A stretch of 64,000 bases of DNA from Patescibacteria group bacterium (GCA_041665145.1 JBAYJK010000003.1:69177-133176); one strand, 5' to 3'; positions 40,183 to 63,332 are shown, numbered from the stretch's first letter. Translations and numbers: made by a program. The notes: generated by a model from the letters alone, not told the origin.

Positions 40183-40674
40183 CTAAGATGTGCCCTTCAA
40201 TTTGCCTTCCGTCGTTTCTATTTGCTCAGATAGGGATTTAGAATCAGTAAATAGCAGCGTTGACATCCCTACAGATTGAGCGGCCTTAATATTTTCCTCC
40301 TGGTCATCTATAAACAAAATTTCGTGTGGTCTTTTTCCTAATTTTGTTGCTACAGTATGGTAGGCTTGCGGATCTCTTTTAGCTATATTTAATTCTTCAG
40401 CTGAAAGTATGGTATCGAAAATACCGCTTAGTTCTTTTTGTACCTCAGGCGCATTTTGAATACTTCCGGAAGTAAACATATTCACAGAGAATTTACTTTT
40501 CAATGAATGATACAGTGATAATATTTCTTTATCTAATCTGTAATAGTCCCAGAAATTAAACGGTTTGCCGCTTGATAGTAAATCTTTATACAATCCGTTT
40601 AACGTTCCGCTATAGTGCGGGTCTTTAGGAAAGAGAATTACAAACGAAAAGTCGGAAAGGATAGTAGTGACCAT
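40183..40674 (-). CDS. HAD-superfamily hydrolase
   Basis: The C-terminal ILFIDDQEENIKAAQSVGM is a HAD motif IV context. N-terminal motif I is degenerate (SDFSFVI). Confidence 0.6.
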   Translation of the reverse strand: MVTTILSDFSFVILFPKDPHYSGTLNGLYKDLLSSGKPFNFWDYYRLDKEILSLYHSLKSKFSVNMFTSGSIQNAPEVQKELSGIFDTILSAEELNIAKRDPQAYHTVATKLGKRPHEILFIDDQEENIKAAQSVGMSTLLFTDSKSLSEQIETTEGKLKGTS

Positions 40675-40694
40675 ACGGTGATTATATCACTAGT

Positions 40695-41177
40695 TTATAA
40701 TTGCTTCCTATACCATACGACTTCAAAAGAGTTGCCTCCGCCCTCAGTGTAATATTCTTTTTCTTTCTCCATTTTCACGTATCCATTTTTCTCGTAAAAA
40801 CTTTGTGCCATTTTTTGCTGTGTAGATGTTTTAAGTTGTATTTCGCTAAACTTGCTTTTTCTTGCCGCTTCCTCCAGTTTCTGAATTATCTGTTGTGCGT
40901 AACCTTTTCTTCTATGATCTGGATGAACCCTCATCCTCCGTATTTGCGCTATGTTATGAAGCATTTTTCTATACCCTCCCATAGCCACAATCTTATTATC
41001 AACTAAACCTACTAGGAATTCTCCGCCATTAAAATAATGTCCTTCCATATCGTTAAAATCTGCTTCCCAGGGTCCACTCCTATAGCCGATTTCAGAATGA
41101 ATAGAACTAAGTTTATAAAGATTCCTTACGTTCTCATTGTCTGTATGTCGGTATCTTCTAATAATTAAGCTAGGCAT
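40695..41177 (-). CDS. GNAT N-acetyltransferase
   Basis: HPDHRRKGYAQQIIQKLEEAA. Confidence 0.85.
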   Translation of the reverse strand: MPSLIIRRYRHTDNENVRNLYKLSSIHSEIGYRSGPWEADFNDMEGHYFNGGEFLVGLVDNKIVAMGGYRKMLHNIAQIRRMRVHPDHRRKGYAQQIIQKLEEAARKSKFSEIQLKTSTQQKMAQSFYEKNGYVKMEKEKEYYTEGGGNSFEVVWYRKQL

Positions 41178-41251
41178 ACCTGAAGTATACCAAGTGCAAA
41201 AGAGAACTACCCAGGAAGTTGGGAAATTCTACTTGGTGCTATAATCACTGA

Positions 41252-42127
41252 ATGGAATTGCCTAAAGTGATCAAAAACGTTGGTTTTGAGTTTAGTTGGA
41301 GCGAACCCAAGGTTTGGGCTCTGAATATTTCTACGGAGAAAATGGCCATTAACGAGCTTGTCTGGCATCTTGAAGTTCCATTTTGGTCTTCTGGTAAGGA
41401 GTCCTACAACCTAACTCCCAAGGAAGTGCTTCAAAACCCGAAGTTACATGATGCCGAATTTAAAAGAATATCTGACTCAAATACTTCATATCCTCTGGAT
41501 ATTATGTTTTGGAAGAATAGATGGTTATTGCTTGATGGACTACATCGTTTGGCTAAGCTGTTTAATGAAAACAAAACTGAAGTAAATGTCAGGATTGTCC
41601 CTCATAATAAAATCCCCGAGATTTTAACGAGTCCCGGACAAGCCAACCAGTCTTGGATAAATCCGAAGGCAAAAATACGGGAGTCCCCTATTGCAGGAAA
41701 GGGCTTGTTTGCAAAAGAAGATTTCATGGTTGGTGAGGTGGTAGTCGTGTGGAGCGGTCTTTATACCAATGCTACTGAGGCAGAGAAAGCACGAAAAGCA
41801 GGAAAATTAGTTACGCAATGGGATGAAGATTTATACAGTGTTGAGGATCGGGGCGATGATAGTGGTTACTTTGTGAACCACTCGTGCGATTCCCATTTAT
41901 GGATGGAAGACGCATATACGCTTATTACCAGAAAACCTATTATGGCTGGCGAGGAAATAACAGCTGATTATGCGCTATGGGAAGCTGAAGATTATGTTTC
42001 AACGTGGAAATGCAAATGCGGTTTGCCAGATTGCAGAAAGACAATTACAGGAAAAGATTGGTTGCTCAAGTCTGTTCACAGTAGGTACCTGCACCACTTC
42101 TCTCCACTGATTAATAAAAGAATATAA
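41252..42127 (+). CDS. ParB/Srx-like N-terminal domain fused to a SET-domain methyltransferase
   Basis: The N-terminal LLLDGLHRLAKL is a DGxHR-type ParB-like motif. The C-terminus has GKGLFA, FVNHSCDSHLW, ITADY and a post-SET Cys cluster CKCGLPDC. Confidence 0.7.
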   Translation: MELPKVIKNVGFEFSWSEPKVWALNISTEKMAINELVWHLEVPFWSSGKESYNLTPKEVLQNPKLHDAEFKRISDSNTSYPLDIMFWKNRWLLLDGLHRLAKLFNENKTEVNVRIVPHNKIPEILTSPGQANQSWINPKAKIRESPIAGKGLFAKEDFMVGEVVVVWSGLYTNATEAEKARKAGKLVTQWDEDLYSVEDRGDDSGYFVNHSCDSHLWMEDAYTLITRKPIMAGEEITADYALWEAEDYVSTWKCKCGLPDCRKTITGKDWLLKSVHSRYLHHFSPLINKRI

Positions 42128-42139
42128 CGTCGGTCACTG

Positions 42140-42616
42140 TCACTTTAAGAATTTCCTCATTTCATGTTCGAACACCCTGCAAAACTCTTCCTCATATTTA
42201 TTCAGATGAATTAACATAATTTTACTTGAAAATTGTGATGCAAGGGCAGCTTTGTCAACCGTTGTCGTGTCCGTTATCCATGGCATTTTGGTAACATATC
42301 GACTTGCAGGGATAATATAAGCAATTTCCGAGTACCCTGCCTGAGAGCAGGCGCTCATACACATAAGACAAGGCTCGACAACCGTAACCATTGCAAGTCC
42401 TGGTGTGTAGTTGCTACCCTTCAATTGACCAACCTTTGTTACGAGCATTCTTTCGGAGTGAGCAGACGCATCATGATTAGTAACAACCAGGCTCTCCGCA
42501 GAATCAATCAAAACTCCGTTTTCTAACACTAAACCAGAATTTGCGAGGTTACCTTTTTGAGCAGAGTTCTCCATTAACTCTTTAAGTAGCTCTATTTGGT
42601 CTGAAGTTAACTCCAT
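42140..42616 (-). CDS. cytidine/deoxycytidylate-type zinc deaminase
   Basis: H(S)E...PCLMCMSAC (the HxE / PCxxC deaminase signature). Confidence 0.75.
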   Translation of the reverse strand: MELTSDQIELLKELMENSAQKGNLANSGLVLENGVLIDSAESLVVTNHDASAHSERMLVTKVGQLKGSNYTPGLAMVTVVEPCLMCMSACSQAGYSEIAYIIPASRYVTKMPWITDTTTVDKAALASQFSSKIMLIHLNKYEEEFCRVFEHEMRKFLK

Positions 42617-42655
42617 ACTGAAATTATATCACTAGTCCGAATCCAGGTTGGTGGA
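42617..42655 (-). repeat. Family-2 repeat with promoter cassette, copy D
   Basis: The minus strand reads ccaccaaCCtGGATTCGGACTAGTGATATAATttcagtATG (deaminase start). Confidence 0.8.
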
Positions 42656-42668
42656 ACCTCATATAAAG

Positions 42669-43343
42669 CTATATGGTTTCAGAAGCTAAGAAGTTCTCTA
42701 TTTCTTTCATTACCATATCACAATCTTTTTGTGAAAATCTAAAATTATGCTCCATATTTTCTCCCCTAACCACGAAAGGATTATTCGCACTTGCAACAAT
42801 TTTTTCTGTTTCTTCCTGCGAAATCTGTTTATCTGCCAATGCAATTAAGATCATAATCGGCTTATGCAATTCTTTAACTTCTTTTAAAGCAGAATACTGA
42901 AGTCCGTCCTCTACAAAAGTATAGGGTATTTCAAAATCTCTTATTTCTTGGGTATTTTCAGGTAAATCGCGTTTGGAATGTTTTGGAGCTTTCCCATTCC
43001 ATTTCTTTGCTAAATTCGAGATATCAACCGGAGAGCACAGCGAAACTACTTTTGTTACAGATGCAATTCTATTTCCTGCAATAATTGAAACGAGTCCTCC
43101 CAAGCTATGACCGATGAGTATTACTTCATTTGGTTGCGGAGGCTGATAAAATAAGACTCTCTCCTCAACTTGTTTAAGATAGTTGGTCGTAGAGTAATCC
43201 TTTGTGTTTCCTGTAGCCCAAAGGTTGCACGGATCAATTCTTTCCACAGTGTATCCAAGTTCAATAAGTCTTTTTTCAAACGTTTTGAAGTGAAGATAAT
43301 CTGGCGAGTCCAAGAAGCCAGGAAGCAATAAAGCAAGTTTCAT
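42669..43343 (-). CDS. alpha/beta hydrolase
   Basis: LLPGFLDS and nucleophile elbow GHSLGG. Confidence 0.75.
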   Translation of the reverse strand: MKLALLLPGFLDSPDYLHFKTFEKRLIELGYTVERIDPCNLWATGNTKDYSTTNYLKQVEERVLFYQPPQPNEVILIGHSLGGLVSIIAGNRIASVTKVVSLCSPVDISNLAKKWNGKAPKHSKRDLPENTQEIRDFEIPYTFVEDGLQYSALKEVKELHKPIMILIALADKQISQEETEKIVASANNPFVVRGENMEHNFRFSQKDCDMVMKEIENFLASETI

Positions 43344-43369
43344 ATCTGAAAATTATATCACGAAGAATA

Positions 43370-43421
43370 GTGCTGTGGAAGTAACGGACGTGGACCAGGA
43401 GGGCCTTATAGTGGTGTCTCA
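43370..43421 (+). repeat. Family-1 junction repeat, copy E
   Basis: GTGCTGtGGaAGTAACGGAcGTGGACCaGgAgGGCCTTATAgtGGTGTCTCA. Confidence 0.85.
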
Positions 43422-43439
43422 TATTTTAAGCTCAATTGA

Positions 43440-44417
43440 TTACTTCGTACGAAGTAGCATCAATATTAGTCCAATTGTTCTATCTCTATCTTTAGGAGTA
43501 CTTTCGGAGACAAGTATTGTTAACGCTGTTAGGGCTTCTGGAGTCAATTTTTGAGTATTTAATATATTGGTCTTTTTTAGAAACCAAACAAATACAAAAG
43601 CACCGCTTCTTTTATTTCCGTCCACAAATGGGTGACCTTTAACAATAAGATATAGAAGATTAGCTGCTTTTTCCTCTGCTGTAGGGTACAACTCTTTTCC
43701 ATTGAATGTTTGAAACACAGTTCTAACAATCCCAGTTAGTCTTCCTTCTTCTTTCTCGCGACCGAAAAGGAGACCTGCTTCTTTATCTCCAATTAACTCT
43801 TCCTTTAGATTTACAATTAACTTACTGACTTGGCTGGCTGTAAGCTCAAAAACACTTTTAATCTTACCGGATTTAGGAAGAGAGTCTTTATCGTAGGTAT
43901 CAAGAGAAAGCCATGTTGATGCAAAAGTTTTTATTAACTCAAGTGTGTTTTGTGTAGAAATCTGACTCTCTGGCAGTAACTCCTGCACTTCGTTAAGCAC
44001 CTTAAGGAAAGTGTTATAATTTTTTTCTAAAATTCTTCTGTTGAGAGTGTAACCCTTTATAATATGTTGCTTGAGTGTCTTTGTTGCCCATTGACGGAAT
44101 CTTGTAGCATTTATTGAGTTTACTCGATAACCAATAGAAAGAACAAGGTCCAAGTTATAATACTCAACTTTCCTCAAGATTTTTCTTGTTCCTTCAGTCT
44201 GAACTGTTTCCAAAACGGAAACAGTTGACTCTCTCTCAAGCTCACGAGTTGTAAAAATATTCTTAACATGTTTTGAGATAGCTCCTTTTTGTACGTTAAA
44301 AAGTTGAGCTACTTGCATCTGAGTAAGCAAAATCGTTTCATTAACAGCATCAAGCTGTACCTCTACTGCGCCGTTTTGAGCCTGATAGACCATAATTTGT
44401 TTACTTTCTTTTTCCAT
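43440..44417 (-). CDS. RhuM-like N-terminal domain fused to a Fic/Doc domain
   Basis: YYNLDLVLSIGYRVNS..RFRQWAT (RhuM pattern) and the C-terminal Fic/Doc motif GHPFVDGNKRSGAF. Confidence 0.8.
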   Translation of the reverse strand: MEKESKQIMVYQAQNGAVEVQLDAVNETILLTQMQVAQLFNVQKGAISKHVKNIFTTRELERESTVSVLETVQTEGTRKILRKVEYYNLDLVLSIGYRVNSINATRFRQWATKTLKQHIIKGYTLNRRILEKNYNTFLKVLNEVQELLPESQISTQNTLELIKTFASTWLSLDTYDKDSLPKSGKIKSVFELTASQVSKLIVNLKEELIGDKEAGLLFGREKEEGRLTGIVRTVFQTFNGKELYPTAEEKAANLLYLIVKGHPFVDGNKRSGAFVFVWFLKKTNILNTQKLTPEALTALTILVSESTPKDRDRTIGLILMLLRTK

Positions 44418-44502
44418 GTTTCAAAGTATAACAAAAAAGTGCTCAATCTAGATTAAGCAGTGTAGTTACAGGGATATAATCTGAGCTTACTTCTGAGTTT
44501 GT

Positions 44503-44545
44503 TGTGAGTAACGGATGCGAACCCGGAAGTTCTTATAGTGTTATA
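44503..44545 (+). repeat. Family-1 junction repeat, copy F (most diverged)
   Basis: tgtGAGTAACGGATGcGaACCcGgAaGttCTTATAGtGttata. Confidence 0.7.
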
Positions 44546-44607
44546 GATACAAGCATAACTAAGTAGATTTTTTAAATCCCCGATGAAGTCTTTAGTATAA
44601 TGTGACT

Positions 44608-45258
44608 ATGAAATTGCTATTAACTTCAGCAGGATTAACAAATCCATCAATTAGCCACGCAGCAGAAGAGCTGTTAGGCCAACCGGCTGAAGGAGTAAAG
44701 CTTGCTTTTATCCCGACTGCCGCCAACGTTGAGCCCGGTGACAAAAGTTGGATGATTCAAGACCTGAATAATTTTCAAAACGCAGGTTTTGAAGTAGATA
44801 TTGTTGATATCTCAGCGGTTTCAAAGGATACATGGTTGCCAAGACTGCTGGAATCTAAAATCTTGTTTTTGGGAGGTGGAAATACATTTCATCTGATGCA
44901 CTGGGTTCAAAAGTCAGGTTTACAGGAAGAACTTCCCTCTTTACTGAAAACGAGAGTATATGCCGGTATTAGTGCCGGAAGTTGCATTACGGGGCCTACC
45001 GTTTACAATTCAGTGCAAAACCTATTTGGTGAGAAATATGATCTTCAAATAAAAGCTGGTTTGGGTTTGGTTGGATTCCAATTTATTCCCCATCTGAACT
45101 CGGCATATTTTGACAAGATTCGGGAAGTAAACTTGCGAGAGGCATCTAAGAATCTTAAAGAGCCAGTATATGCTTTAGATGATAACTCTGCACTCAAGAT
45201 TACCGATGATAAGGTGGAAATAATTAGTGAGGGAGAGTATTTGTTATTCAATGCCTGA
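44608..45258 (+). CDS. S51 peptidase (dipeptidase E-like)
   Basis: FIPTAA, GGGNTFHL, GISAGS. The ATG at 44608 is preferred over the GTG at 44602 because TATAAT 44596-44601 lies 6 nt upstream. Confidence 0.75.
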   Translation: MKLLLTSAGLTNPSISHAAEELLGQPAEGVKLAFIPTAANVEPGDKSWMIQDLNNFQNAGFEVDIVDISAVSKDTWLPRLLESKILFLGGGNTFHLMHWVQKSGLQEELPSLLKTRVYAGISAGSCITGPTVYNSVQNLFGEKYDLQIKAGLGLVGFQFIPHLNSAYFDKIREVNLREASKNLKEPVYALDDNSALKITDDKVEIISEGEYLLFNA

Positions 45259-45275
45259 GTCAGTTGCAGTTTGAA

Positions 45276-45328
45276 ATTGTTGTGTCGTTATAACTCTTTC
45301 TACAAGACCAGTGCTGGGTTTTGCTGAT
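45276..45328 (+). repeat. Family-4 repeat, copy G
   Basis: GTCGTTATAActctttcTACAaGACcAGTGCTGGGTTTTGcTGAT. Confidence 0.8.
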
Positions 45329-45330
45329 AA

Positions 45331-45351
45331 AGTTGGAAAATTTTACCAACT
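45331..45351. terminator. hairpin AGTTGG-aaaatttta-CCAACT between convergent genes
   Basis: A 6-bp stem with an A/T loop, abutting the stop of the 45353 gene. Confidence 0.45.
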
Positions 45352-45352
45352 A

Positions 45353-46117
45353 TTATACTAAGCAAGTTCCGATCAACTCTACTATCCTGACAATATTTTT
45401 ATCTATGTCACCATCTCTCATAAAGGCGTGTGGAATTTGCTCATCTTCGATGTATGAACCTTTATTTTTGTCTGGAGTAAAATCAAAAAAAGATTTAACC
45501 ATTAACGTACTCAACCTCGGAAAATAACCAAATTTATCTGAACCCCTGTCAGCAACTGGTAGATACCCGTTCGGTCCATGGTTTCTCAGAAAAGAGTGAA
45601 TCACATCAATTATTACTGAAGAAGAAATTTTTGCTAACTTTTGGCTTATAGTCTCCTTGTTTGGATTATAACTTTCAAATCCGCTCCATGTTTTGGGATT
45701 TAAGCTTTGAGCTTCAGTAATATAATAATCTGCAGGATCTATAAAAACCACTTTCGAGATAAAAGGATCAAATTGTTTATCTAACAGCGCCTCAGTTGTG
45801 CTATACGCACCCATGCTTGTACATAAAATAGCTATTGATGAAAACTTAAGCATAGATTTAGAATACTGCAATATCTCTAGGAGATCCGAAGTTTGTTGGT
45901 TTAGTGTCGGTTGTTTGTTTTCTTCGACGCCGCTGAAGGAAAAAGTGACAACTGGTCTGTTTGTTCGTTTTTGCAGTTCAAGTACTAAAGCGTTAAAAGT
46001 ATTTCTCGTATCTCCACTTCCTCCGACGAATATAACTGCCTCGTTGCTACCACTTAATGGGAAGTAGTTCAGCGAAATAGGTCGCCCTGTAATTCTAGAA
46101 AGTGTCAGTTCTTGCAT
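45353..46117 (-). CDS. alpha/beta-hydrolase-fold protein
   Basis: VIFVGGSGD, elbow-like CTSMGA, and C-terminal PHAF. Confidence 0.55.
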   Translation of the reverse strand: MQELTLSRITGRPISLNYFPLSGSNEAVIFVGGSGDTRNTFNALVLELQKRTNRPVVTFSFSGVEENKQPTLNQQTSDLLEILQYSKSMLKFSSIAILCTSMGAYSTTEALLDKQFDPFISKVVFIDPADYYITEAQSLNPKTWSGFESYNPNKETISQKLAKISSSVIIDVIHSFLRNHGPNGYLPVADRGSDKFGYFPRLSTLMVKSFFDFTPDKNKGSYIEDEQIPHAFMRDGDIDKNIVRIVELIGTCLV

Positions 46118-46181
46118 AGCTAAATTATACTAAAGTCCGAATCCTAGTTGGGTACTGTTGTTACAGGGATATACTGTAAGG
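46118..46181 (-). repeat. Family-2/3 repeat with promoter, copy H
   Basis: The plus strand reads AGTCCGAATCCtaGTTGggtactgTTGTTACAgGGaTAtactGTAAG preceded by the -10 box of the 46117 gene. Confidence 0.8.
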
Positions 46182-46212
46182 CTAAATTTCTTGACAGGGA
46201 TTAGTTGAAAAT

Positions 46213-46282
46213 GGTAGCTAGTCTCGTGTTCAAGTACTGCACAAAACAGTTCTTTTCCTACTTGCTCTCCCCATAAGCTACC
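46213..46282 (-). terminator. 70-nt nested-helix element directly after the stop of the 46289 gene
   Basis: Outer 7-bp stem GGTAGCT/AGCTACC and inner 6-bp stem CAAGTA/TACTTG. On the minus strand it is followed by ATTTT. Confidence 0.4.
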
Positions 46283-46288
46283 GAAATA

Positions 46289-46930
46289 CTATTTAAGATA
46301 TCCTATTTTGTAAGCAAATATTGTTCCTAATACACCTAACGCAGCACTTACTGTAGCTGTTACTAAATTAACGATAATCTGGTCTCCATTTCTCTTAAGA
46401 AAACCCTTCACGTCGTGCCTTTTTGACAAAACTATTTCACTGTGTTTAAACAATCTAATATAAAACACCCAAACCGTCCAGGCTAAGAACAGACAATAGA
46501 AATATAAAACAATCTGAGATATTACTCCATGTAATAATAGCCTGAAGACGAAAAAGCCAATATATCCGACCCATAAAGTGTAATCAGAGTATAGAAAACT
46601 TGGCTTTCGAGTGGTTGTCAAAATTATTCTGTCTAATTTGTAGAACAATCCTGCCCCAAGGTTATTATTTGATCCTACGTATAATCTGGTCCATAATTTA
46701 TGCAGCTCTAAAGTCACGTACGGAGAACTTGAAGAAATTTTAAGATCAGTAATTGACTCATTTTCGTACTTCTTACATAGCTCTTTTACATTTGAGAATT
46801 CCAAACTCTTAGACACAATCTTATATCCGCTTTTTTCGACCAACAATAATTCCTCTATGGCCTCAAGTTGATCTACAAAGACTCTTATTGGTGAATATTT
46901 TCTTAGAAGTGGCTCATTAATTCTTTTCAT
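46289..46930 (-). CDS. hypothetical membrane protein (soluble N-domain + 3-4 TM)
   Basis: 213 aa. It overlaps the upstream gene by ATGA (46927-46930). Confidence 0.6.
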   Translation of the reverse strand: MKRINEPLLRKYSPIRVFVDQLEAIEELLLVEKSGYKIVSKSLEFSNVKELCKKYENESITDLKISSSSPYVTLELHKLWTRLYVGSNNNLGAGLFYKLDRIILTTTRKPSFLYSDYTLWVGYIGFFVFRLLLHGVISQIVLYFYCLFLAWTVWVFYIRLFKHSEIVLSKRHDVKGFLKRNGDQIIVNLVTATVSAALGVLGTIFAYKIGYLK

Positions 46931-47460
46931 TTTTCTTGGCTTACTTTCGTGCCATCAGAAAAAATTGCCTCTAACTTAGTAAAAACATCTGTTGGGTGCT
47001 GATCTTTTTGATCAAAAGAAAGCCTTTTTATTTCTGGTTCAACAAAAATTTGCGTTTTCTCTTTTTTCCCTTTTTCACCAGCATAGACGACAAGACGCAA
47101 ACCAGTTTTTGATTCCATGAGTCTTGAAACAACAAAAAACCTATTGTCTTTCGAAGATACTTTGCTTTCAGCAATAGGAGTTGCTTCGTTATCAATATTA
47201 ATAAAATGCATTGTTTTATAGGTCCTAGAGTTTATCTCCTTTAAGATAAATTGTTTCTCATAGTATACAAATCTAGGAATGGAATATATTTTATTACATT
47301 TCTCACATTGCAACTTCTTACTTGTATATTCGTTATCCGTATAATCGTCTAAATGTAGGTCTAATTCAATATAGTCCCTTGGACACAAGGGAACAGCTCT
47401 CGCGGGGCGCTGCCCTATGATCCACCTTACCCCATCGACAATAAAACCTACTTTTAACAT
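46927..47460 (-). CDS. hypothetical protein with a Zn-ribbon-like CPxx...CxxC
   Basis: 177 aa with LCPRDY...CEKCNK. It is translationally coupled to 46289-46930. Confidence 0.6.
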   Translation of the reverse strand: MLKVGFIVDGVRWIIGQRPARAVPLCPRDYIELDLHLDDYTDNEYTSKKLQCEKCNKIYSIPRFVYYEKQFILKEINSRTYKTMHFINIDNEATPIAESKVSSKDNRFFVVSRLMESKTGLRLVVYAGEKGKKEKTQIFVEPEIKRLSFDQKDQHPTDVFTKLEAIFSDGTKVSQEK

Positions 47461-47461: not shown

Positions 47462-47513
47462 GTGCTGGGAGTAACGGATGTGGACCTGAAAGGCCTTATA
47501 ACGGTGTCTCACC
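47462..47513 (+). repeat. Family-1 junction repeat, copy I (island boundary)
   Basis: GTGCTGGGAGTAACGGATGTGGACCtGaAaGGCCTTATAacGGTGTCTCAcc. Confidence 0.85.
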
Positions 47514-47561
47514 TTTGAGGCTAAATGGGACATTTGGTACAGTATAAAAAGAAACAACTCA

Positions 47562-47863: not shown

Positions 47864-47876
47864 CAAGAAGATAAAT

Positions 47877-48371: not shown

Positions 48372-48373
48372 AA

Positions 48374-50123: not shown

Positions 50124-50130
50124 TGCTCTT

Positions 50131-54663: not shown

Positions 54664-54689
54664 TTGCTGTCTTCAACGAAACTCTGAAA

Positions 54690-54706
54690 TCTTCATAAAA
54701 TCTTAA
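54690..54706 (+). promoter_or_regulatory. Direct repeat TCTTCA-N5-TCTTAA (island RR box 2)
   Basis: The 17-mer is identical to box 1. It lies 12 nt upstream of TATGCT (54719-54724), which is 7 nt from the ATG at 54732. An extra TCTTCA at 54669-54674 is 21 nt upstream. Confidence 0.55.
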
Positions 54707-54731
54707 CTGCCTGTCTTGTATGCTGTATTTT

Positions 54732-56579: not shown

Positions 56580-56593
56580 TTATTAACAAAACT

Positions 56594-56797
56594 ATGCAAT
56601 CAATGAAACTAACCGGACTTACTTGCAACGCTTGCAAGAAAGTCTCAGAAAAAAGGATCGGAGCAATAAGCGGAGTTCAAAAAGTTGATGTTTCCGTTGA
56701 ATTGGGTGTAGCAGTCATAGATTCCGATAGGCTACTATCAGTATTAGAAGTTAACAAAGTGCTTCAAGACACACCTTATAAAGCACTCGAGAAATAG
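56594..56797 (+). CDS. small HMA-like metallochaperone (CopZ-like)
   Basis: 67 aa with [12 protein letters not shown]. The start is taken at MQSMKL. Confidence 0.65.
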
Positions 56798-56798
56798 T

Positions 56799-59700
56799 AT
56801 GAATAGAATAATTGATCTTAAAATTGAAGGAATGCATTGTCAGTCGTGCGAAATGTTAATCAAAGATGAGCTGTCTTCCCTTTCGGGTGTCAAAGACGTT
56901 AGTACTGACTATAAAACTGGCCGCGGAACAGTCACTTTAACCAATCGGGTTACTTCAGACGCGGCAATTCTTGACTCTGTAAAAAATGCAGGGTATGTGG
57001 CTTCTGTAATTACTTCCAATCATCTGAGTAACAACGTATCACAATTGCCACAAGAAAAGGGAACATTTGCTTTTTTGAATTTCCCAAAGGAAATAGGTCT
57101 TGAAGGAACAATCGGCAAGAATGCAGAAGGACAGGTGACCATTAAAGGTAAGTTACGATTTAATTCTAACGAAAGCGATGAACCTCACCAACTCGCTCAG
57201 CCGAATAACGTTGTCGAAAATAATACTTTTGCTGGTAAAACGGAACGAACTAGTTTGGTCATTATAGGAATGCATTGTTCCTCTTGTGCCGCAATTATTG
57301 AGAGACAGTTAAAAAAGGTGACTGGTGTATCAGAAGCAAAAGTTAATTTCGCTTCTGAAAAAGCATCTGTAGTTTACAATTCGGGCGTAACAAAGACAGA
57401 AGATTTAATAAAAGCAGTTGAAAAATCTGGATACAAAGCTGCTCCCGCTCATACTGAAGACTCACAAGCTCAAGCAAAACGCCAAACATCAGAAATAAAG
57501 CATCAATGGAACAGATTCATTATCAGCATGGTGTTGTCGTCCCCAATGATTTATTTCATGTTTCTTGATTTCTTTAATTTTCTACCGGGAACCAAGCTCA
57601 TACTTCCCTACATTGGAATCATATCGTTTGTATTAGCAACACCCGTACAATTCATCATTGGCTCCAACTTTTACAAAGGAATGATTTCCGCCTTAAAGAT
57701 GCGTACGTTTAACATGGATAGTTTAATAGCTATAGGGACATCCGTTGCCTATTTCTATAGCGCTGCTAACTTTATCCAATACTTTATAACCAACAATTCC
57801 TTAATTGGCCTTGCAGGAGCCAAAATTCCAGATTTGTACTTTGAAACTGCAGCATTCCTTATTACGTTTGTTATTCTAGGAAAATTCCTTGAAGCAAAAG
57901 CCAAAGGAAGGACATCTGAAGCGATTAAGAAACTCATGGGTTTGCAGGCAAAAACAGCACGAGTTATACGAAACGGAGAGACAGTTGATATTCCTGTTGA
58001 CCAGGTTATCAAAAACGATATTATCATGGTTCGACCCGGAGAAAAAGTCCCCGTAGATGGAACGATTACGAAAGGCTCCTCTTCTATCGACGAATCAATG
58101 ATAACCGGTGAGAGTCTTCCTGTTGAAAAACATGTTGAGGACACAGTTATCGGCGGCACAATAAATAAAGTCGGTAGCTTTGAGTTTATGGCAACACGAG
58201 TGGGGTCTGAAACTACGCTCGCCCAAATTATCCGCCTCGTTGAAGACGCACAGGGTTCTAAGGCACCCATTCAAGCTGTTGCCGATAAGATTTCTGCATA
58301 CTTTGTTCCGGGTGTAATAGCACTTGCCGTTTTGACATTTGTTGTCTGGTTTTTCTTTTTAGGGTCAACGCTTTCTTTCGCTCTAATGGCATTTACGGCA
58401 GTTATTGTTATTGCCTGTCCTTGTGCTCTGGGCCTTGCCACCCCGACAGCCATAATGGTTGGAACGGGAGTTGGGGCTGAACATGGCATCTTAATCAAAG
58501 GTGGCGAACCATTGGAAAGTGCAAGTAAAATAAATACGATTGTTTTCGACAAAACAGGAACTATCACAAAAGGAAAGCCCGAAGTAACTGATGTTGAAGA
58601 TGTTGGTTCGCTTGACGATAAAGAAGTGCTTGCTATTTCTGCAAGTCTTGAAAAGCAATCCGAACACCCCCTTGCTGAAGCAATATATTCTTACTCTCAA
58701 GAGGAAGGTGTGACTCTTAAAGAAGTTGAGAAGTTTAGTGCAATTCCAGGCCATGGCGTCAAAGGGACTATTGGAAACAAAGATTACTTTTTCGGAAATC
58801 GCAAGCTTATTACCGAAACGCTTGGTTTGGATATCGGTAAGTTTGAACGGAAGCTCGTACGACTCGAAGAACAGGGAAAAACAGCAATGATCCTATCTTC
58901 AAAAGACGAAGTGCTTGGACTGATTGCTGTTGCTGATACGATAAAAACCACTTCGAGAGAAGCTATTGAAAAACTCAAGAAGATGAAGATTGAAGTATGG
59001 ATGATCACAGGGGACAATACCCGTACGGCTAAGGCAATTGCTGCACAAGTCGGTATTGACAATGTCCTCGCCGAAGTCTTGCCTCAAGATAAGGCCAACG
59101 AAGTAAAAAAACTTCAGGAACAAGGTAAAAAAGTAGCGATGGTAGGAGACGGTATTAATGACGCACCGGCACTTGCACAAGCTGAACTTGGAATTGCAAT
59201 GGGTTCGGGAACTGATGTTGCCATGGAAGCCGGAGGAATCGTCATCATTAAGAATGATCTCAGAGATGTAGTTAATGCACTCGATCTTTCCAAGAGCGCC
59301 GTGCAAAAAATACAACAAAACATGTTCTTTGCTTTGTTCTATAACGTTATCGGCATTCCAATCGCTGCGCGTGTATTTATGTTCGCGGGCCTTGTGTTAA
59401 AGCCGGAACTTGCTGGTCTTGCGATGGCACTTAGTTCAGTTTCTGTAGTAAGCAACTCACTGCTTCTTCGGCGCTACCGTCCGGGAAAAAAGAACTATAT
59501 ATCTATGTTTGCACCGATTGTTATGATGATCGCTTTTACGTTACTGTTTATCGAATTTGCACGGTTTAGTTCCACTATGGCTGCACCAAAGAAGATGGAT
59601 TCGAAAGTAACCAATTCTCGTGCAGTTAGTAATGTGGTAGAAATAAGCGCTCCCACTGGAGTTAAAAAACAGTTCTATATGGTAGGAAACAGTATTCCTA

Positions 59701-59948
59701 CAGAGTTATCAGGTCAGATACAAATGGAGGCATTCAATCCGGTATATATTGCAGGAAAGAAGTATAGTCCGATTTTTATAGGGTATGACGAGGCTCAGGT
59801 TATGATTGAGGAAAAACTATTTTCTAAACCGGGTGATACTATTAAGAACTTTTTTGGTAATGACATTATTGTCTCAGGCGTCTTAGTAAAGACTAATTCA
59901 GTTTTTGATACGTATCATTTTGTCAAGGAAGGGTTCCAATTAAGGTGA
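56799..59948 (+). CDS. copA: Cu+-type P1B ATPase with two N-terminal HMA domains and a ~150 aa C-terminal extension
   Basis: GMHCQSCE and [57 protein letters not shown], then an extra TM plus a soluble domain (59499-59945). Confidence 0.9.
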
Positions 59949-59978
59949 ATGAAATAAGTCTGCTATGAGGCCGATGTG

Positions 59979-60049
59979 CTGGGGGACGTGGATTCGGACC
60001 ACGATAAACAGCTCCAAAGGCTGCTGTCCTACCATTAGACGATCCCCCA
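59979..60049 (-). tRNA. tRNA-Gln (anticodon UUG), no encoded CCA
   Basis: The manual cloverleaf is TGGGGGA/TCCCCCA acceptor stem, GTCT/GGAC D stem, GCAGC-CTTTGGA-GCTGT anticodon arm, and CGTGG-TCCGAAT-CCACG T arm, with discriminator G. The 5' TGGGG.ATCG start resembles the bacterial tRNA-Gln I remember. Confidence 0.85.
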
Positions 60050-60126: not shown

Positions 60127-60669
60127 ATGGCAAAGTACGATTTTAAGCCTTACTATTGTGAGTTTCCCAAGTTGTTTAAGGACGAACAACGTCGTCTTCG
60201 AAGTTTCCTTGGAAACAGCCCAGTAATTGAGCACTTCGGGAGCTCTGCTGTCCCTGGTCTTGGAGGAAAGGGGATCATCGATATTTTTGTTGCTGTTCCC
60301 AGAGATCAAATGAAATCGACGTCTGAGCTACTTCTAAAAGCAGGATACGGATATCGAGAAACTGGAGGTGACTCAGAACGATTGTTCCACCAACGTACTG
60401 TTTTGCATAGTGAGAATATCACTCAAATATACCATGTTCACGTTACTTTTCTTGAAAATGAGAATTTCAAGCAAGCAATTCTTTTTAGGAATTACTTACG
60501 AACACATGAGACTGATCGTCTTGAATATGCCCGAGTCAAAGAGATCGGTGCCAAGCTTGTAGAAGGTGTTGAAGACAAGAAATCGAAGAAAGAGCTCTAC
60601 ATGAAGGCTAAAGAGACTACGGTTGCAGCAATTCTTAAAAAAGCAATTGAAAGCAGTAAAAAATCCTGA
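60127..60669 (+). CDS. GrpB-family (UPF0157) nucleotidyltransferase-fold protein
   Basis: IEHFGSSAVPGLGGKGIIDI, HVHV, and FRNYLRTH. Confidence 0.8.
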   Translation: MAKYDFKPYYCEFPKLFKDEQRRLRSFLGNSPVIEHFGSSAVPGLGGKGIIDIFVAVPRDQMKSTSELLLKAGYGYRETGGDSERLFHQRTVLHSENITQIYHVHVTFLENENFKQAILFRNYLRTHETDRLEYARVKEIGAKLVEGVEDKKSKKELYMKAKETTVAAILKKAIESSKKS

Positions 60670-60672
60670 TTT

Positions 60673-61251
60673 TCACTTAAGTAAATTTAACTGCTTTCTT
60701 CTAATAATTAATAAAGTACTTTCAATAATATTGATTAATAAATTTGTTACCGGGTAAAGCCATGTGAGTAGGGAGTAATTTGCCAAAGCCAAAAGCCCCA
60801 AAAAGTTACGTACCGCACCCATCTTCCACGTAAAGAGTGTCTCGGAATGTGGATCTTTCCATGACTTTCGGATGGTGGGCAAGTTCGCAAGGGTGTTTAT
60901 GGTAACGATCAAAACGGTTGAGATAACCGGTTCTTTCGCGAAAATCCACACGCATGTTGCTATGAGTGCGATAATGAAAGTTATCGTATCAAACTTAGTT
61001 ATGTCTTTTTCTCCATTCTTGAGGCCTAAAATGTAAATGGTCAAGCAAAGAATAGCTGTGGCGAGGGTTGTATAGGCACCTGCACCACCTTTTCCTAAAA
61101 TCTGAAGCGCAAAAATGATAAAAGTTACAAATGCCCAGATAAACCAACTGTATATATGGGGTTTAGTTTTGCCTTTTACAGTATCCCAGATGTACGGAGC
61201 ATACCCAATGAAGGTTAAGATTACTGCTAGAGCCCCTAATACGTCTTTCAT
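60673..61251 (-). CDS. hypothetical 6-TM membrane protein
   Basis: 192 aa and hydrophobic. TATAAT lies 6 nt upstream of the ATG at 61251. Confidence 0.6.
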   Translation of the reverse strand: MKDVLGALAVILTFIGYAPYIWDTVKGKTKPHIYSWFIWAFVTFIIFALQILGKGGAGAYTTLATAILCLTIYILGLKNGEKDITKFDTITFIIALIATCVWIFAKEPVISTVLIVTINTLANLPTIRKSWKDPHSETLFTWKMGAVRNFLGLLALANYSLLTWLYPVTNLLINIIESTLLIIRRKQLNLLK

Positions 61252-61300
61252 GCGCTTATTATACTAAAAGCTATTCTCAGGAAGTACGAACGTTATTAGT

Positions 61301-61362
61301 CTTACTCGATACCCATGTAACAAGAACACAACCAGGATTCGGACTAGTGATATAATTTTATA
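61301..61362 (+). repeat. Family-2/3 repeat with promoter cassette, copy L (inverted relative to D and H)
   Basis: CTTACtcgaTAcCCaTGTAACAAgaacacaaCCaGGATTCGGACTAGTGATATAATtttataATG. 29 of 30 nt are identical to copy D across aaattatatcactagtccgaatccNggttg. Confidence 0.85.
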
Positions 61363-61668
61363 ATGACGAAACTATTATCCTTGCTTCTGGCAATTTCCTT
61401 TGTGACTACTCCTAATGTATTTTTTCGTATTGCTAGTTACCTTGATCCACATGGGGGATTTGAAGACTTGGGCTTAGCTGTTTTTGTTTTCGGCTTGTCG
61501 ATTATATTCATAACATTTTATGTATTCGTATTTGCCTATATCTACGTCAGAATATTTAAAAGAAAAGACTTTCAGAATATTTTTAAAGGCTCTGTGCTCT
61601 GGCTACTAGGACTTGCGCTTCTCGGCAATTTGTTTATTTTTCTTAAAAGCCTCTTACTTAAACACTAA
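61363..61668 (+). CDS. small 3-TM membrane protein
   Basis: 101 aa. TATAAT 61351-61356 lies 6 nt upstream of the ATG. Confidence 0.5.
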   Translation: MTKLLSLLLAISFVTTPNVFFRIASYLDPHGGFEDLGLAVFVFGLSIIFITFYVFVFAYIYVRIFKRKDFQNIFKGSVLWLLGLALLGNLFIFLKSLLLKH

Positions 61669-61763
61669 TTGTTTATTGCGAAGCGTAAAATTTCCCGACT
61701 TATTTTCTCGAATAACGATAATAGTATATTGAAAAACGATAAATCGTGGAATATACTGTCAAT

Positions 61764-62240
61764 ATGAAACGAGGTTCCACTTTATTTCTAAAGGTCGTAA
61801 TTTTACTCACTGCCATTAGTGTGCTTACCGCCATGCTTTGGTTCCCTCAAACTGAGGGAAGAGCTGCTAACTTAGATCTAATCAGTATTTATACAGATCC
61901 CGTTATTATTTATATGTATATAGCATCAATTTCTTTCTTCATTGGGCTATATCAGGCATTTAAACTACTAAATCTTATTGACGCTAACAAAGCATTCTCC
62001 CAAGGTGCTGTTAATACACTCAAAAATATGAAGTTTTCCTCACTTACCCTTATCGGATTAATTGCAGTAGCTGAAGGCTATATCCGTTTCTTTGCACACG
62101 GCGACGATCCAGCTGGTCCGACAATGCTTGGTTTTTGTTTAGTAATAGCATTTGCCGTTATTGCCACAGCAGCCAGTGTCTTTCAAAAACTTCTCCAAAA
62201 TGCTGTAGATATAAAATCAGAAATTGATTTAACTGTATAA
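61764..62240 (+). CDS. DUF2975-like membrane protein
   Basis: 4 TM, followed by a YozG-like HTH gene (a known pairing). The ATG at 61764 is preferred because TATACT 61752-61757 lies 6 nt upstream. Confidence 0.6.
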   Translation: MKRGSTLFLKVVILLTAISVLTAMLWFPQTEGRAANLDLISIYTDPVIIYMYIASISFFIGLYQAFKLLNLIDANKAFSQGAVNTLKNMKFSSLTLIGLIAVAEGYIRFFAHGDDPAGPTMLGFCLVIAFAVIATAASVFQKLLQNAVDIKSEIDLTV

Positions 62241-62249
62241 GTCACAAAT

Positions 62250-62474
62250 ATGGCAATAATAATCAACATAGATGTAATGTTAGCTAAGCGAAAGATGAGT
62301 GTTACCGAACTTACTACTGAGGTGGGTATTACAATGGCTAATCTTTCAATTTTGAAGAATGGAAAAGCAAAAGCTATACGCTTCTCAACACTCGAAGCTA
62401 TCTGCAAAGCCTTAGATTGCCAACCTGGAGATATTTTGGAATATAAAGAAACTTATGCGAGCCAAATTACTTAA
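62250..62474 (+). CDS. XRE-family HTH regulator (YozG-like)
   Basis: MLAKRKMSVTELTTEVGITMANLSILKNGKAKAIRFSTLEAICKALDCQPGDIL. Confidence 0.9.
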   Translation: MAIIINIDVMLAKRKMSVTELTTEVGITMANLSILKNGKAKAIRFSTLEAICKALDCQPGDILEYKETYASQIT

Positions 62475-62527
62475 ATAATGAGAATTTCTTTTCATGGTAT
62501 TTGCCCAGAGTAAAATTTCACAGCTTC

Positions 62528-62574
62528 ATCAACAAAACCCAGCACTAGTCCTGTAAAACGAATTATAACGACTC
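62528..62574 (-). repeat. Family-4 repeat, copy M (inverted)
   Basis: The reverse complement reads GTCGTTATAAttcgtttTACAgGACtAGTGCTGGGTTTTGtTGAT. Confidence 0.8.
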
Positions 62575-62600
62575 TGAATAATGTTGTGATATAATAGTTT

Positions 62601-63242
62601 ATGTTTTTAGAGCACTGGAAAAGGCTTTTTGCTGGCGACAGAGATAAGACTCATTTAACGAACGGAGGACTTGACTTGCGTGACGCTGAGCTTTTGGATG
62701 TTGCTGAATCGCGCGTTTTTAGAAAAGGTGGGTCTGTTTTAAAAATTTATGACACTCCTCTTTCAAGGGGAATAATTACTCGCTCCACGCTACAACTATA
62801 CAAAAGGCTCACCGGACAAGTCTCACAAGAACTAACCCAAAGATCTGATGAGTGGTCGTTTTCAGGGCAATGTATTTCTATACACTGGAACGTGGTGGAA
62901 ATAGACAATTTAGGAGAATTGCCTGGAACCGGAGATGCATGGTCTATGAGTAAATACGTGCCGGGAATTAATCTGAGAGATATGTATTACCCGCAGTGGG
63001 CTCGACGACAAGTTATACAACAAGCTGTCCTGAAAGGTCGCGAGGAGCAGATGAGAGGTTTATTGGACCGGGTATCGCTCGAAGTAAATGCACGGCTGAA
63101 TACAGATTTAACAGACATAGATCTTACCAATGTCATCGTAGATGCTTCAAATACAGGCTTATTATTCAATGTAACCGATGTCTGTGGAATAGTTTCAAAG
63201 GTTGATGGTGGTTATGCAAGAGTTCCATTGATGTTTGAGTAA
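62601..63242 (+). CDS. hypothetical protein, possibly an atypical kinase-like fold
   Basis: 213 aa. The pair DIDLTNVIVD ... FNVTDVCG weakly resembles a kinase catalytic loop and DFG. Confidence 0.4.
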   Translation: MFLEHWKRLFAGDRDKTHLTNGGLDLRDAELLDVAESRVFRKGGSVLKIYDTPLSRGIITRSTLQLYKRLTGQVSQELTQRSDEWSFSGQCISIHWNVVEIDNLGELPGTGDAWSMSKYVPGINLRDMYYPQWARRQVIQQAVLKGREEQMRGLLDRVSLEVNARLNTDLTDIDLTNVIVDASNTGLLFNVTDVCGIVSKVDGGYARVPLMFE

Positions 63243-63244
63243 TG

Positions 63245-63282
63245 CTATAAGGCCTTCTTGGTCCACATTCGTTACTCCCAGC
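63245..63282 (-). repeat. Family-1 junction repeat, copy K (inverted)
   Basis: The plus strand reads CTATAAGGCCttcttGGTCCACAttCGTTACTCCCAGCc, the reverse complement of the family consensus. Confidence 0.85.
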
Positions 63283-63332
63283 CAATTCTTCGCTAAAGCT
63301 TCGAAGTCATTTTAATTTGATAAAATATTTTT

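Follow-up and report, generated by a model that had tools for sequence, protein, structure and literature searches.

Short repeats lie between small, unrelated genes on both sides of a tRNA-Gln gene in this Patescibacteria contig, and the question that the locus raises is whether they belong to a system that moves genes one at a time or are traces of a better-known process. The initial annotation of the window (the whole 64,000-nt stretch of DNA that was analyzed) had leaned towards the former: a field of single-gene cassettes, each bounded by repeats and carrying its own promoter. We find that the zone beside tRNA-Gln has been pieced together from horizontally acquired genes in a CPR (Microgenomates-type) bacterium that is uncultivated and has a small genome. 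Most likely, the repeats are eroded traces of successive site-specific insertions and the locus is a genomic island of a familiar type rather than a new cassette mechanism. The specific reading that we favor, to which we give about an even chance, is a genomic-island zone anchored at tRNA-Gln and shaped by serial integration and decay, together with copied promoter modules.

Gene families were assigned by Pfam, and the coordinates of all features are collected in Table 1. The base composition of both small-gene stretches departs from that of the flanks, as expected for a genomic island: GC content is 37.5% in 40183-47602 versus 43.5% in the flank (1-37350), and it is 36.8% in 60050-64169 and 44.2% again past 64.2 kb. 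Genes in the field point both ways, and almost all of them have a -10 box of their own. The families named initially as HAD, GNAT, SET, deaminase, RhuM-Fic, peptidase E, GrpB, EEP and, in the right stretch, DUF2975 plus HTH (HTH_26 in Pfam) were recovered; the “ParB-like” and “kinase-like” calls found no support in Pfam or PDB sequence searches, and two field genes, not three, match alpha/beta-hydrolase models. The conflict- or defence-island character that had been read into this content comes down to one gene, RhuM-Fic, the only match to a defence-candidate family (PADLOC PDC-S23). A TATAAT box 5-8 nt before the ATG, initially taken as a hallmark of the field, occurs throughout the window (e.g., at 2254, 4747, 9133, 12611, 27129, 27469, 27543 and 30858) and so is not special to the field; it is the general leaderless promoter of the genome.

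Table 1. Features of the window around tRNA-Gln, in order of position.
Feature	Position	Strand	Basis
HTH, 117-aa, thioredoxin, DipZ module (conserved anchor)	34567..37350	-	relatives' loci compared
Left stretch, ten small accessory genes	40183..47460	.	Pfam, GC content
HAD gene	40183-40674		Pfam
GNAT gene	40695-41177		Pfam
SET gene	41252-42127		Pfam
Deaminase gene	42140-42616		Pfam
Family 2/3 copy, deaminase promoter module, ends ACTAGTGATATAAT-N6-ATG	42617..42668	-	
Alpha/beta hydrolase genes (two)	42669-43343 and 45353-46117		Pfam
Family 1 copy a, between RhuM-Fic and alpha/beta hydrolase	43372..43432	-	
RhuM-Fic gene	43440-44417		Pfam
Family 3 fragment, adjoins family 1 copy b	44461..44485	-	
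Family 1 copy b, upstream of RhuM-Fic	44497..44546	-	
Peptidase_S51 gene	44608-45258		Pfam
Family 4 copy a, has CCCAGCAC in tRNA orientation, 6 nt after hydrolase stop codon	45284..45346	-	
Family 2/3 copy, promoter module of alpha/beta hydrolase 45353-46117	46118..46190	-	
Family 1 copy c, far edge of copper module, ends in CCCAGCAC	47462..47527	-	
Copper/heavy-metal resistance module	47603..59948	+	Pfam; similar contigs in other CPR genomes
tRNA-Gln(ttg)	59978..60049	-	ARAGORN; Rfam tRNA 58.6 bits
Right stretch, small accessory genes GrpB through EEP, 5' side of tRNA	60127..64000	.	Pfam, GC content, contig extension L003
GrpB gene	60127-60669		Pfam
Family 2/3 copy, promoter module of 101-aa membrane ORF	61298..61362	+	
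Family 4 copy c, partial, 8 nt past 101-aa ORF stop codon	61676..61701	+	
Family 4 copy b, after DUF2975-HTH, before 213-aa ORF, inverted vs copy a	62510..62572	+	
Family 1 copy d, tRNA 5' side, upstream of EEP gene, inverted vs a-c	63243..63284	+	
EEP gene	start 63333, end 64169 (just outside window)		Pfam, contig extension L003

The span is not one field of single-gene cassettes, as first described. Its center, 12.4 kb or about half of it, is a multi-gene metal-resistance cluster (47.6-59.9 kb) in which gene sizes reach 3.1 kb and Pfam identifies two P-type ATPases. The first four genes encode an 86-aa HTH-like ORF, DUF1573 and two unknown proteins; the rest encode a response regulator, a histidine kinase, a P-type ATPase, an HMA-DsbD_2-cupredoxin protein, an HMA protein and a 1038-aa CopA-like ATPase. 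The part from response regulator to CopA (50.1-59.9 kb) is conserved in other CPR contigs (CopA, 77% aa) with differing neighbors, which include type IV secretion genes and Thoeris; the 47.6-50.1 kb part has no match in those contigs. As judged by this comparison, the module is shown to be mobile cargo. The island abuts the 3' end of tRNA-Gln (59978), with 29 nt between it and the CopA stop codon (59948).

Four repeat families were distinguished, with 2-4 copies each of 25-75 nt that are 70-97% identical. The initial counts held (family 1, four copies; family 2/3, three copies and the family 3 fragment; family 4, two copies), and a partial third copy of family 4 was added to them. Repeats do occur at nearly every junction: they were found in 11 of the 12 field spacers (40.7-47.6 and 60.1-63.3 kb) of at least 40 nt, versus 0 of 21 spacers of 40-213 nt in the remainder of the 80.4-kb contig sample (Fisher p = 6e-8). 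Within these 80 kb of contig, the repeats and their restriction to the low-GC zone are real. The family 1 pattern was hit 5 times versus 0.18 expected, the four copies being placed at 43372, 44500, 47462 and 63245, and the two full copies of family 4 (63 nt) share 84% identity.

Resemblance between the repeats and tRNA-Gln centers on the 3' boundary of the gene. Here CCCAGCAC (tRNA strand, window 59976-59983) spans the final 5 nt of the tRNA and 3 nt of flank, and is the proposed recombination core. The octamer GTGCTGGG, which had been said to recur in family 1, in family 4 and at the tRNA boundary, does so with 4 occurrences versus 0.86 expected, a count attained in 1 of 100 shuffles, and its presence at that boundary is probably meaningful. 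The copies of family 1 resemble one another over ~45-75 nt towards the 5' side of the tRNA, but the likeness ceases right after CCCAGCAC, at the tRNA-end boundary; the tRNA octamer is also carried by family 4, which is unrelated to family 1. The tRNA and the four copies on its 3' side (family 1 a-c, family 4 a) all run in the same orientation. Family 1 copy c matches the last 25 nt of the tRNA at 18 of 25 positions (72%), in direct orientation and with the terminal 8-mer in common, a level reached by <0.05 windows per shuffled 70 kb; it is a candidate for what remains of a distal att site (arm plus core). Derived bases that the tRNA lacks are common to the family 1 copies, which must therefore come from an element arm and not from displaced tRNA ends. 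No exact duplicate of the window's own tRNA 3' end was found, nor any site with ≤5 mismatches out of 23. A second 18/25 match to the tRNA 3' end falls within an ORF (46323-46347) and is probably due to chance. Family 2/3 has 10-14 nt in common with the tRNA-Gln T-arm (p about 0.001-0.014), the copy at 42617..42668 containing GTCCGAATCC, which is identical to the T-arm.

We compared the locus with tRNA-Gln loci of relatives. In a Levybacteria MAG (L011; GCA_035329765.1), tRNA-Gln(ctg) is followed by a 6.2-kb copper island homologous to the module of the window, by a copy of the tRNA 3' end and by HTH-117aa-Trx-DipZ. The distal repeat GAATCCAGGTCCGGCAGC reproduces 18 nt of the L011 tRNA 3' end exactly, and an inverted T-arm 13-mer lies 45 nt past its tRNA. 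The site is empty in L023 (JGI Ga0209514_10000010) and L024, where the tRNA is 255 nt from the HTH-thioredoxin-DipZ module and the flank beyond it (AACCCTAAAGC) matches the flank beyond the L011 repeat. Order and orientation in the window are as in L011 (tRNA-Gln, then HMA, DsbD_2-cupredoxin and P-ATPase genes antisense to the tRNA, then HTH-DipZ), with HTH-DipZ 22.6 kb downstream of the tRNA. Occupancy of the site varies from empty (L023/L024) through a 6.2-kb copper island (L011-L013) or a different mobile-looking segment (L014) to 22.6 kb in the window, among relatives that are distant (DipZ 75-77% identical) and carry the ctg isoacceptor versus ttg in the window. No integrase was seen in the relatives' islands. 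These occupied and empty states show tRNA-Gln to be a real integration site in the sister lineage.

For the window, we suggest that integrative elements would have recombined with the tRNA-Gln 3' end, with the crossover in or beside CCCAGCAC. Every arrival would regenerate the tRNA and deposit the element's arm plus core at the far end, so that older insertions would be pushed outward in tandem accretion; integration and transfer genes would later have been lost, and the insertions would have shrunk to one-to-three-gene remnants and one intact copper-resistance module. Family 1 would then represent decayed arm-plus-core junctions, and family 4 probably likewise, while family 2/3 would be a leaderless-promoter module (an extended -10 box with the ATG 6 nt further on) that was copied and now serves unrelated genes. 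We infer that the family 1 and family 4 copies are insertion scars, and likewise the crossover position and the serial order of arrivals. As initially stated, no recombinase is in sight: a scan of ORFs in the window and its extensions (80 kb; Pfam, PHROGs) gave no recombinase hit (including Phage_integrase), nor did the precomputed Pfam gene tables contain one, and with integrase absent from 80 kb only decayed or trans-mobilized elements are compatible. Against integration, likeness is absent across the other side of the core, though it is expected for internal junctions between related elements, no self-sufficient element is as small as the remnants (0.8-3 kb), and the ttg isoacceptor of the window is not the one (ctg) at which integration was demonstrated in relatives. 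On the tRNA 5' side, moreover, inverted copies of family 1 (one), family 2/3 (one) and family 4 (one full, one partial) occur, and 3'-end integration cannot place these without extra rearrangement.

That last difficulty does not arise if intergenic modules (promoter-bearing and gene-end segments) were propagated locally by homologous or illegitimate recombination and the tRNA resemblance is coincidental, a reading that we consider possible but rather unlikely. Every family 1 copy points at a downstream gene and every family 4 copy follows a co-directional gene, a placement that explains the orientation flip across the tRNA without rearrangement. In leaderless genes the -10 box must stand exactly 5-8 nt ahead of the ATG, and family 2/3 provides such a box: TGATATAAT lies within it, its end coincides with the transcription start, and the same segment stands ahead of the non-homologous deaminase, alpha/beta hydrolase and 101-aa membrane ORF genes, with 29 of 30 positions matching between the copy at 61298..61362 and that at 42621-42650; partial copies also precede GrpB and HAD. 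TATAAG is retained invariant in family 1. Statistics of tRNA similarity are modest: gapped alignments of family 1 and family 4 to the tRNA gave weak scores (p = 0.03 to 0.9). Propagation nevertheless leaves unexplained why family 1 likeness ends exactly at the tRNA-end octamer and why unrelated family 4 has the same octamer. Between family 1 and the next ATG lie anywhere from 1 to 85 nt, which means that family 1 is not a fixed promoter part, and one would have to dismiss as irrelevant the tRNA-Gln integration of a homologous copper island in the sister lineage.

A new type of working cassette system, in which promoter-plus-gene units with CCCAGCAC-containing repeats are moved singly by a recombinase encoded elsewhere, appears improbable. 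Such a system would fit the repeats at nearly every junction, the lack of a recombinase within 80 kb, and the bracketing of RhuM-Fic by family 1 copies a and b as a direct repeat with a spacing of 1127 nt. Its repeats, however, are only 70-89% alike and fall into several unrelated families, several zone junctions have no repeat, and half of the span is the multi-gene module. Folding, suggested in the initial annotation, revealed no conserved structure: relative to shuffled sequence, family 1 gains no folding stability (z = -1.5 to +1.9), and its alignment yields only a 4-bp consensus stem with no covariation, no attC-like fold and no symmetric core. The searches proposed there in other genomes and strains returned no family 1 copy elsewhere in 185,579 species genomes or JGI metagenomes, and the locus is 100% identical in three independent assemblies, among which strain variation is not visible. 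Of the cassette-accretion hotspot first envisaged, what stands is that the zone is variable, was assembled horizontally and is tied to tRNA-Gln; we saw no evidence of single genes moving as units. It is more doubtful still that the CCCAGCAC-bearing repeats are live sites of a non-integron CPR cassette system whose distant recombinase inserts small units at or near tRNA-Gln; if true, the repeat-linked promoter modules would give incoming ORFs an exactly spaced -10 box for leaderless translation. Ordinary genome-wide dispersed repeats (REP- or MITE-like), visible here through the zone's longest spacers, are a very improbable explanation, since the comparison spacers outside the zone carry none and terminal inverted repeats, hairpins, terminator-like structure and Rfam matches are all absent, although the copies are short and degenerate and the inspected sample is 80 kb of a roughly 0.9-Mb genome.

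Serial integration and decay at tRNA-Gln can be set against known systems. Integron cassette arrays likewise hold many small unrelated genes between short repeats, with toxin or defence-type cargo, but their cassettes are promoterless and in a single orientation, whereas the window has mixed orientation, genes with their own promoters and several unrelated repeat families; it has no attC-like folded sites and no intI with attI and Pc promoter at the array head, and the initial judgment that this is not a classical integron is borne out. Family 2/3 resembles the promoter propagation, or putative mobile promoters, that Matus-Garcia, Nijveen and van Passel reportedly described in Nucleic Acids Res in 2012, in that near-identical promoter segments lie upstream of non-homologous genes; that concept is a pattern, not a mechanism, and the copies in the window are clustered in one island zone. 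The L011 copper island has the same macro-layout, with homologous ATPase and DsbD_2-cupredoxin genes and, like the window, no integrase, but it is a single 6.2-kb island with an exact 18-nt repeat, unlike the 22.6 kb, other isoacceptor and degenerate repeats of the window.

The nearest known model is one in which integrative elements accumulate in tandem at a tRNA or tmRNA gene and decay to remnants that lack an integrase. In published tandem islands, 3'-end repeats mark the borders and have a conserved motif upstream, and some members are integrase-less (PMC3146451; PMC5704250). ICEs and IMEs insert into the 3' end of genes, tRNA genes among them, and CIMEs, which have lost integration and transfer genes and kept their att sites, form tandem composites when a newcomer integrates alongside (PMC5704250). 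This accretion model, from the ICESt1-related elements of Streptococcus thermophilus (PMC5704250), would fit the window, although CIMEs have recognizable attL/attR and were shown to be mobilized, whereas no intact att pairs were seen in the window. The ssrA-GIs of Dehalococcoides (PMC3146451) differ in their clear 20-bp repeats (the copies in the window are degenerate, 72% to the tRNA) and in that many keep a serine-recombinase integration module, whereas the window has no integrase, its remnants hold one to three genes and some copies are inverted on the tRNA 5' side. They resemble it in forming a low-GC, high-plasticity zone downstream of a small RNA gene, in islands that are, or in the window may be, delimited by partial 3'-end copies with a conserved motif just upstream of the repeat that is unlike the RNA gene, and in members without integration genes that are read as cis-mobilizable remnants.

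The accessory-gene field, which extends from 40183 to about 64.2 kb, was surveyed for repeats and genes across the window and its identical contig extensions (to position 70,669 in the fetched locus L003, and 9.7 kb more on the left); L003 and a further fetched locus, L001, match the window at 100% identity. Most of the initial gene calls were upheld by Pfam (HAD, GNAT, SET, deaminase, RhuM-Fic, Peptidase_S51, GrpB, DUF2975 plus HTH_26, EEP and two alpha/beta hydrolases), and the SET domain call was solid, but a “ParB-like” N-terminus and a “kinase-like” ORF were unsupported by Pfam and PDB sequence searches. A multi-gene metal-resistance cluster that the initial annotation had not mentioned was found by Pfam within the same span. 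Defence-type cargo had been proposed for several genes; the RhuM-Fic protein does match PADLOC family PDC-S23 (E = 1e-105), but it is the sole field gene matching any defence-candidate family. The reported absence of a recombinase held for Pfam and PHROGs across all scanned ORFs and the precomputed gene tables of the extensions. A recombinase hidden among the uncharacterised ORFs was rejected, these having zero PHROG or PDB sequence matches. GC content is approximately 37% in both small-gene stretches versus 44% in the flanks. Palindromes of 19-20 nt lie in two spacers of the window's core-like part (see table).

A TATAAT-like box lies 5-8 nt ahead of the start codon of most first genes in the entire window, within and outside the field alike, and alignment of 35 promoter sites gave an extended -10 box (TGnTATAAT) but no conserved -35 motif. 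The spacing between box and ATG leaves a Shine-Dalgarno sequence no room. Leaderless starts are the normal, genome-wide design here, and the description of the field genes as individually promoted is therefore uninformative about cassettes: the boxes are present, but they are shared by the whole window and hence are no cassette mark. In scans of leaderless lineages, a promoter at the ATG of each gene should be taken as background, not as a cassette signature. Extra bases peculiar to the field promoters were found (ACTAGTGA in four and TTTAG in three) and are missing from the other promoters. Full-text literature search found no report of leaderless gene starts in Patescibacteria; both terms occur in two papers, one of which uses them for YchF only.

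That the repeat families are real and sharply confined was borne out when the spacers were compared all against all and 80.4 kb of contig was scanned: all copies lie within 40.7-47.6 or 60.1-63.3 kb, and repeats were present in 11 of 12 spacers of at least 40 nt inside the zone versus 0 of 21 outside (p = 6e-8). Repeats scattered without relation to gene junctions were not seen in the 80.4 kb. Family 1 has four copies (chance expectation: 0.18 pattern hits), family 2/3 has three long copies and partial ones at the GrpB promoter, at the HAD promoter and at 44461, and family 4 is represented by two 63-nt copies (84% identity) and an incomplete third one. The family 2/3 repeats are promoter modules, which contain the -10 box, terminate at the transcription start and stand ahead of unrelated genes with identity of up to 29/30. 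Each family 1 copy is found ahead of a gene, always in one orientation (1, 27, 50 and 85 nt from the ATG), and the four copies are similar over about 45-75 nt, with the likeness ceasing directly after the octamer CCCAGCAC. As first noticed, this octamer is common to the family 1 boundary, both full family 4 copies and the 3' boundary of tRNA-Gln(ttg), where it spans the final 5 nt of the tRNA and 3 nt of the adjoining sequence.

Similarities between the repeats and the tRNA are modest and only moderately significant. Read from the shared end, the family 1 copy at 47462 matches the last 25 nt of the tRNA at 18/25 positions (<0.05 windows per shuffled 70 kb), and family 2/3 has 10-14 nt in common with tRNA-Gln T-arms, including those of relatives; by gapped alignment to the tRNA, family 1 scores were weak and those of family 4 were not significant. 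The tRNA-Gln 3' end is matched at 18/25 positions once more, in the same zone as the repeats but inverted within the 3' part of a 213-aa membrane ORF; this match is probably due to chance. Rfam yielded tRNA only (gathering thresholds for the whole window, permissive thresholds for both repeat zones). Structured RNA or attC-like DNA was rejected: in the fold check proposed by the initial annotation, family 1 folded no better than shuffled sequence and had nil covariation. No terminator-like hairpin overlaps any repeat, and a small conserved ORF in family 1 was discarded on inspection, since one frame is open in 4/4 copies but the copy differences are mostly non-synonymous.

The family 1 pattern (21 positions invariant in the four copies) had no match in 185,579 GTDB species genomes or in JGI metagenomes, and relatives were therefore reached via proteins and the tRNA. 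The nearest GrpB homologue was merely 47% identical, and synteny via GrpB gave no lead. Contigs from two further sequencing runs were identical to the window (100%), so that they gave no pan-genome signal. The two Logan contigs with GrpB both begin within the tRNA, for which shared tRNA k-mers are the most likely reason.

Relatives obtained through tRNA-Gln and DipZ were Roizman-, Gottesman-, Levy- and Woesebacteria, which places the organism among the Microgenomates within the CPR. DipZ has many Microgenomates homologues (72-79% identity), accompanied by a small HTH gene, a 117-121-aa gene and a thioredoxin gene. In the JGI contig Ga0209514_10000010 (L023; also L024), only 255 nt separate a tRNA-Gln(ctg) from this HTH-DipZ module downstream of it, and in Levybacteria GCA_035329765.1 (L011; also L012, L013) the tRNA-Gln(ctg) is followed by a 6.2-kb copper island, then an exact 18-nt copy of the tRNA 3' end and the HTH-DipZ module. 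The bases following the 18-nt repeat in L011 are those following the intact tRNA in L023, and the two loci are a textbook occupied/empty pair. No integrase was found in the 6.2-kb island. An inverted 13-nt T-arm copy (CCTGGATTCGAAC) lies within it, 45 nt past the tRNA. The window has the order and orientation of L011 (tRNA-Gln, antisense HMA, DsbD_2-cupredoxin and ATPase genes, and HTH-DipZ downstream), and differs from it in the distance between the anchors (22.6 kb) and in its ttg isoacceptor.

In GCA_964419005.1 (L014), a different, mobile-looking segment with methylase, DUF87 and FtsK_gamma lies upstream of HTH-DipZ, and in other relatives the module stands in unrelated contexts. Its proteins are 72-79% identical across MAGs labelled Levy-, Gottesman-, Woese-, Shapiro- and Daviesbacteria (L011-L027); these many differing neighbourhoods, in MAGs of several candidate phyla, suggest that the module itself is exchanged horizontally. 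The distance from an MgtE-Nramp pair to tRNA-Gln is 2-4 kb in L023, where the pair lies upstream, and 58 kb here, and the HTH-DipZ module is inverted relative to this pair compared with L023; the wider neighbourhood may therefore be expanded and rearranged. A JGI scan for tRNA-Gln 3' ends gave 121 matches, 24 of them fragments outside an intact tRNA, so that such fragments are frequent; none of the 24 was of CPR type. The JGI contig Ga0209202_1000746 (L030) has an intact tRNA-Gln, a gap of about 124 nt and an exact 18-nt 3'-end copy, which may be a nearly empty integration remnant. The T-loop of the window tRNA-Gln(ttg) reads TCCGAAT instead of the near-universal TTCGAAT, with C at position 55, which is usually U and converted to pseudouridine. 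The same T-loop occurs in five Microgenomates/CPR genomes (L006-L010), whereas the tRNA-Gln(ctg) genes of L011 and L023 retain TTCGAAT.

Other CPR contigs also carry the copper module from its response regulator gene through CopA, with other genes around it (CopA: 77% amino acid identity). An exact 18-21-nt repeat ahead of two transcription units of the copper module is kept base for base in other CPR contigs, although the modules overall are only about 70% DNA-identical; it is probably a binding site of the module's response regulator. In GCA_034680565.1 (L019), type IV secretion-like genes, M23 and S24 peptidases and a Thoeris set come after the copper module, an arrangement hinting that CPR bacteria have conjugative-type elements which ferry genes for metal resistance and defence.

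Coordinates of features in the window and in comparison loci
Feature	Sequence	Position (strand)	Details
Example leaderless ATG sites	window	2254(-), 4747(-), 9133(-), 12611(+), 27129(-), 27469(-), 27543(+), 30858(+)	
Palindrome	window	10670-10689	perfect
Palindrome	window	19542-19560	one mismatch
HTH/117-aa/thioredoxin/DipZ module	window	34567-37350	DipZ at 34567-36264
Second match to tRNA-Gln 3' end	window	46323-46347 (+)	
Metal-resistance (copper) cluster	window	47.6-59.9 kb	DUF1573, response regulator, histidine kinase, 713-aa P-type ATPase, HMA-DsbD_2-cupredoxin protein, small HMA protein, 1038-aa CopA-like ATPase (Pfam)
Copper-module repeat	window	47561-47579, 54686-54706	
Copper-module repeat	L017/L018	7930-7950, 3141-3159	
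Copper-module repeat	L020	7920-7941	
tRNA-Gln(ttg)	window	59978-60049 (-)	
MgtE-Nramp pair	L148 (this genome)	8778-11266	window -1.2 to 1.5 kb
MgtE-Nramp pair	L023	3922-6358	
Occupied site	L011	2343-8596	Peptidase_C39, HMA, DsbD_2-cupredoxin, P-type ATPase, cupredoxin, DUF305, CsoR
Empty site	L023	8567-8900	
tRNA-Gln and 18-nt copy	L030	9300-9458	
Copper module and following genes	L019	4944-13194	TrbC/T4SS pilin, TraC-like, DUF87/AAA_10/TraG ATPase; ThsB_TIR, ThsA_Macro

The zone may have arisen through repeated site-specific insertions at the 3' end of tRNA-Gln and have decayed later, a reading to which we give about an even chance. The copper module would be the island adjoining the tRNA, with the family 1 copy at 47462 at its distal edge, and family 1, and probably family 4, would represent arm-plus-core junctions. 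The part common to the family 1 copies would be an element arm, which would account for the likeness being greater among the copies than between them and the tRNA; the crossover region would be their common right-hand boundary, CCCAGCAC, and family 2/3 would be a promoter module copied among accessory genes. The attP of an integrase-bearing source element would then read ...GTTACTCCCAGCAC. Several observations weaken the integration reading: the window holds no exact duplicate of the tRNA 3' end, the family 1 copies share no sequence past the core, the remnants are very small, and the integration site demonstrated in relatives is the other tRNA-Gln isoacceptor (ctg). In addition, inverted copies lie on the 5' side of the tRNA: one from family 1, two from family 4 (one full, the other partial) and one from family 2/3. 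A single inversion was dropped as the cause, because the tRNA and the HTH-DipZ module are still oriented to each other as in L011 and L023.

A rival account, in which promoter and gene-end modules were copied locally and no site-specific integration took place, would fit the gene-linked orientation of all copies but leaves the octamer boundary unexplained, and we consider it possible but doubtful. The initial reading as a single cassette array was only partly right: the repeats and their concentration are real, but the zone includes a multi-gene module and its promoter design is genome-wide. A working cassette system of a new type with a distant recombinase is improbable, as no sign of mobility was found and the locus reads identically in three independent assemblies. 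Genome-wide repeat clutter, against which the 80 kb of contig sampled speaks, is the least probable account.

The most fitting description of the locus is a decayed genomic island zone, linked to tRNA-Gln, in a CPR bacterium. To our knowledge, mobile elements and gene flow have been poorly documented in CPR/Patescibacteria. Together with its relatives, the locus provides a concrete case of tRNA-Gln-targeted islands with copper resistance in Microgenomates, including a clean occupied/empty pair, and suggests how tiny-genome bacteria gather accessory genes at one place. The mechanism is standard, and the finding is therefore an added example rather than a principle. The accretion-and-decay route has been reviewed (PMC5704250). 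In Dehalococcoides, ssrA islands are arranged in tandem and bounded by 3'-end repeats, a conserved motif unlike the RNA gene lies just upstream of the repeat, and integrase-less members were interpreted as cis-mobilizable remnants (PMC3146451); on the integration reading, the window zone would resemble these islands in its tandem layout, its upstream motif and its integrase-less members.
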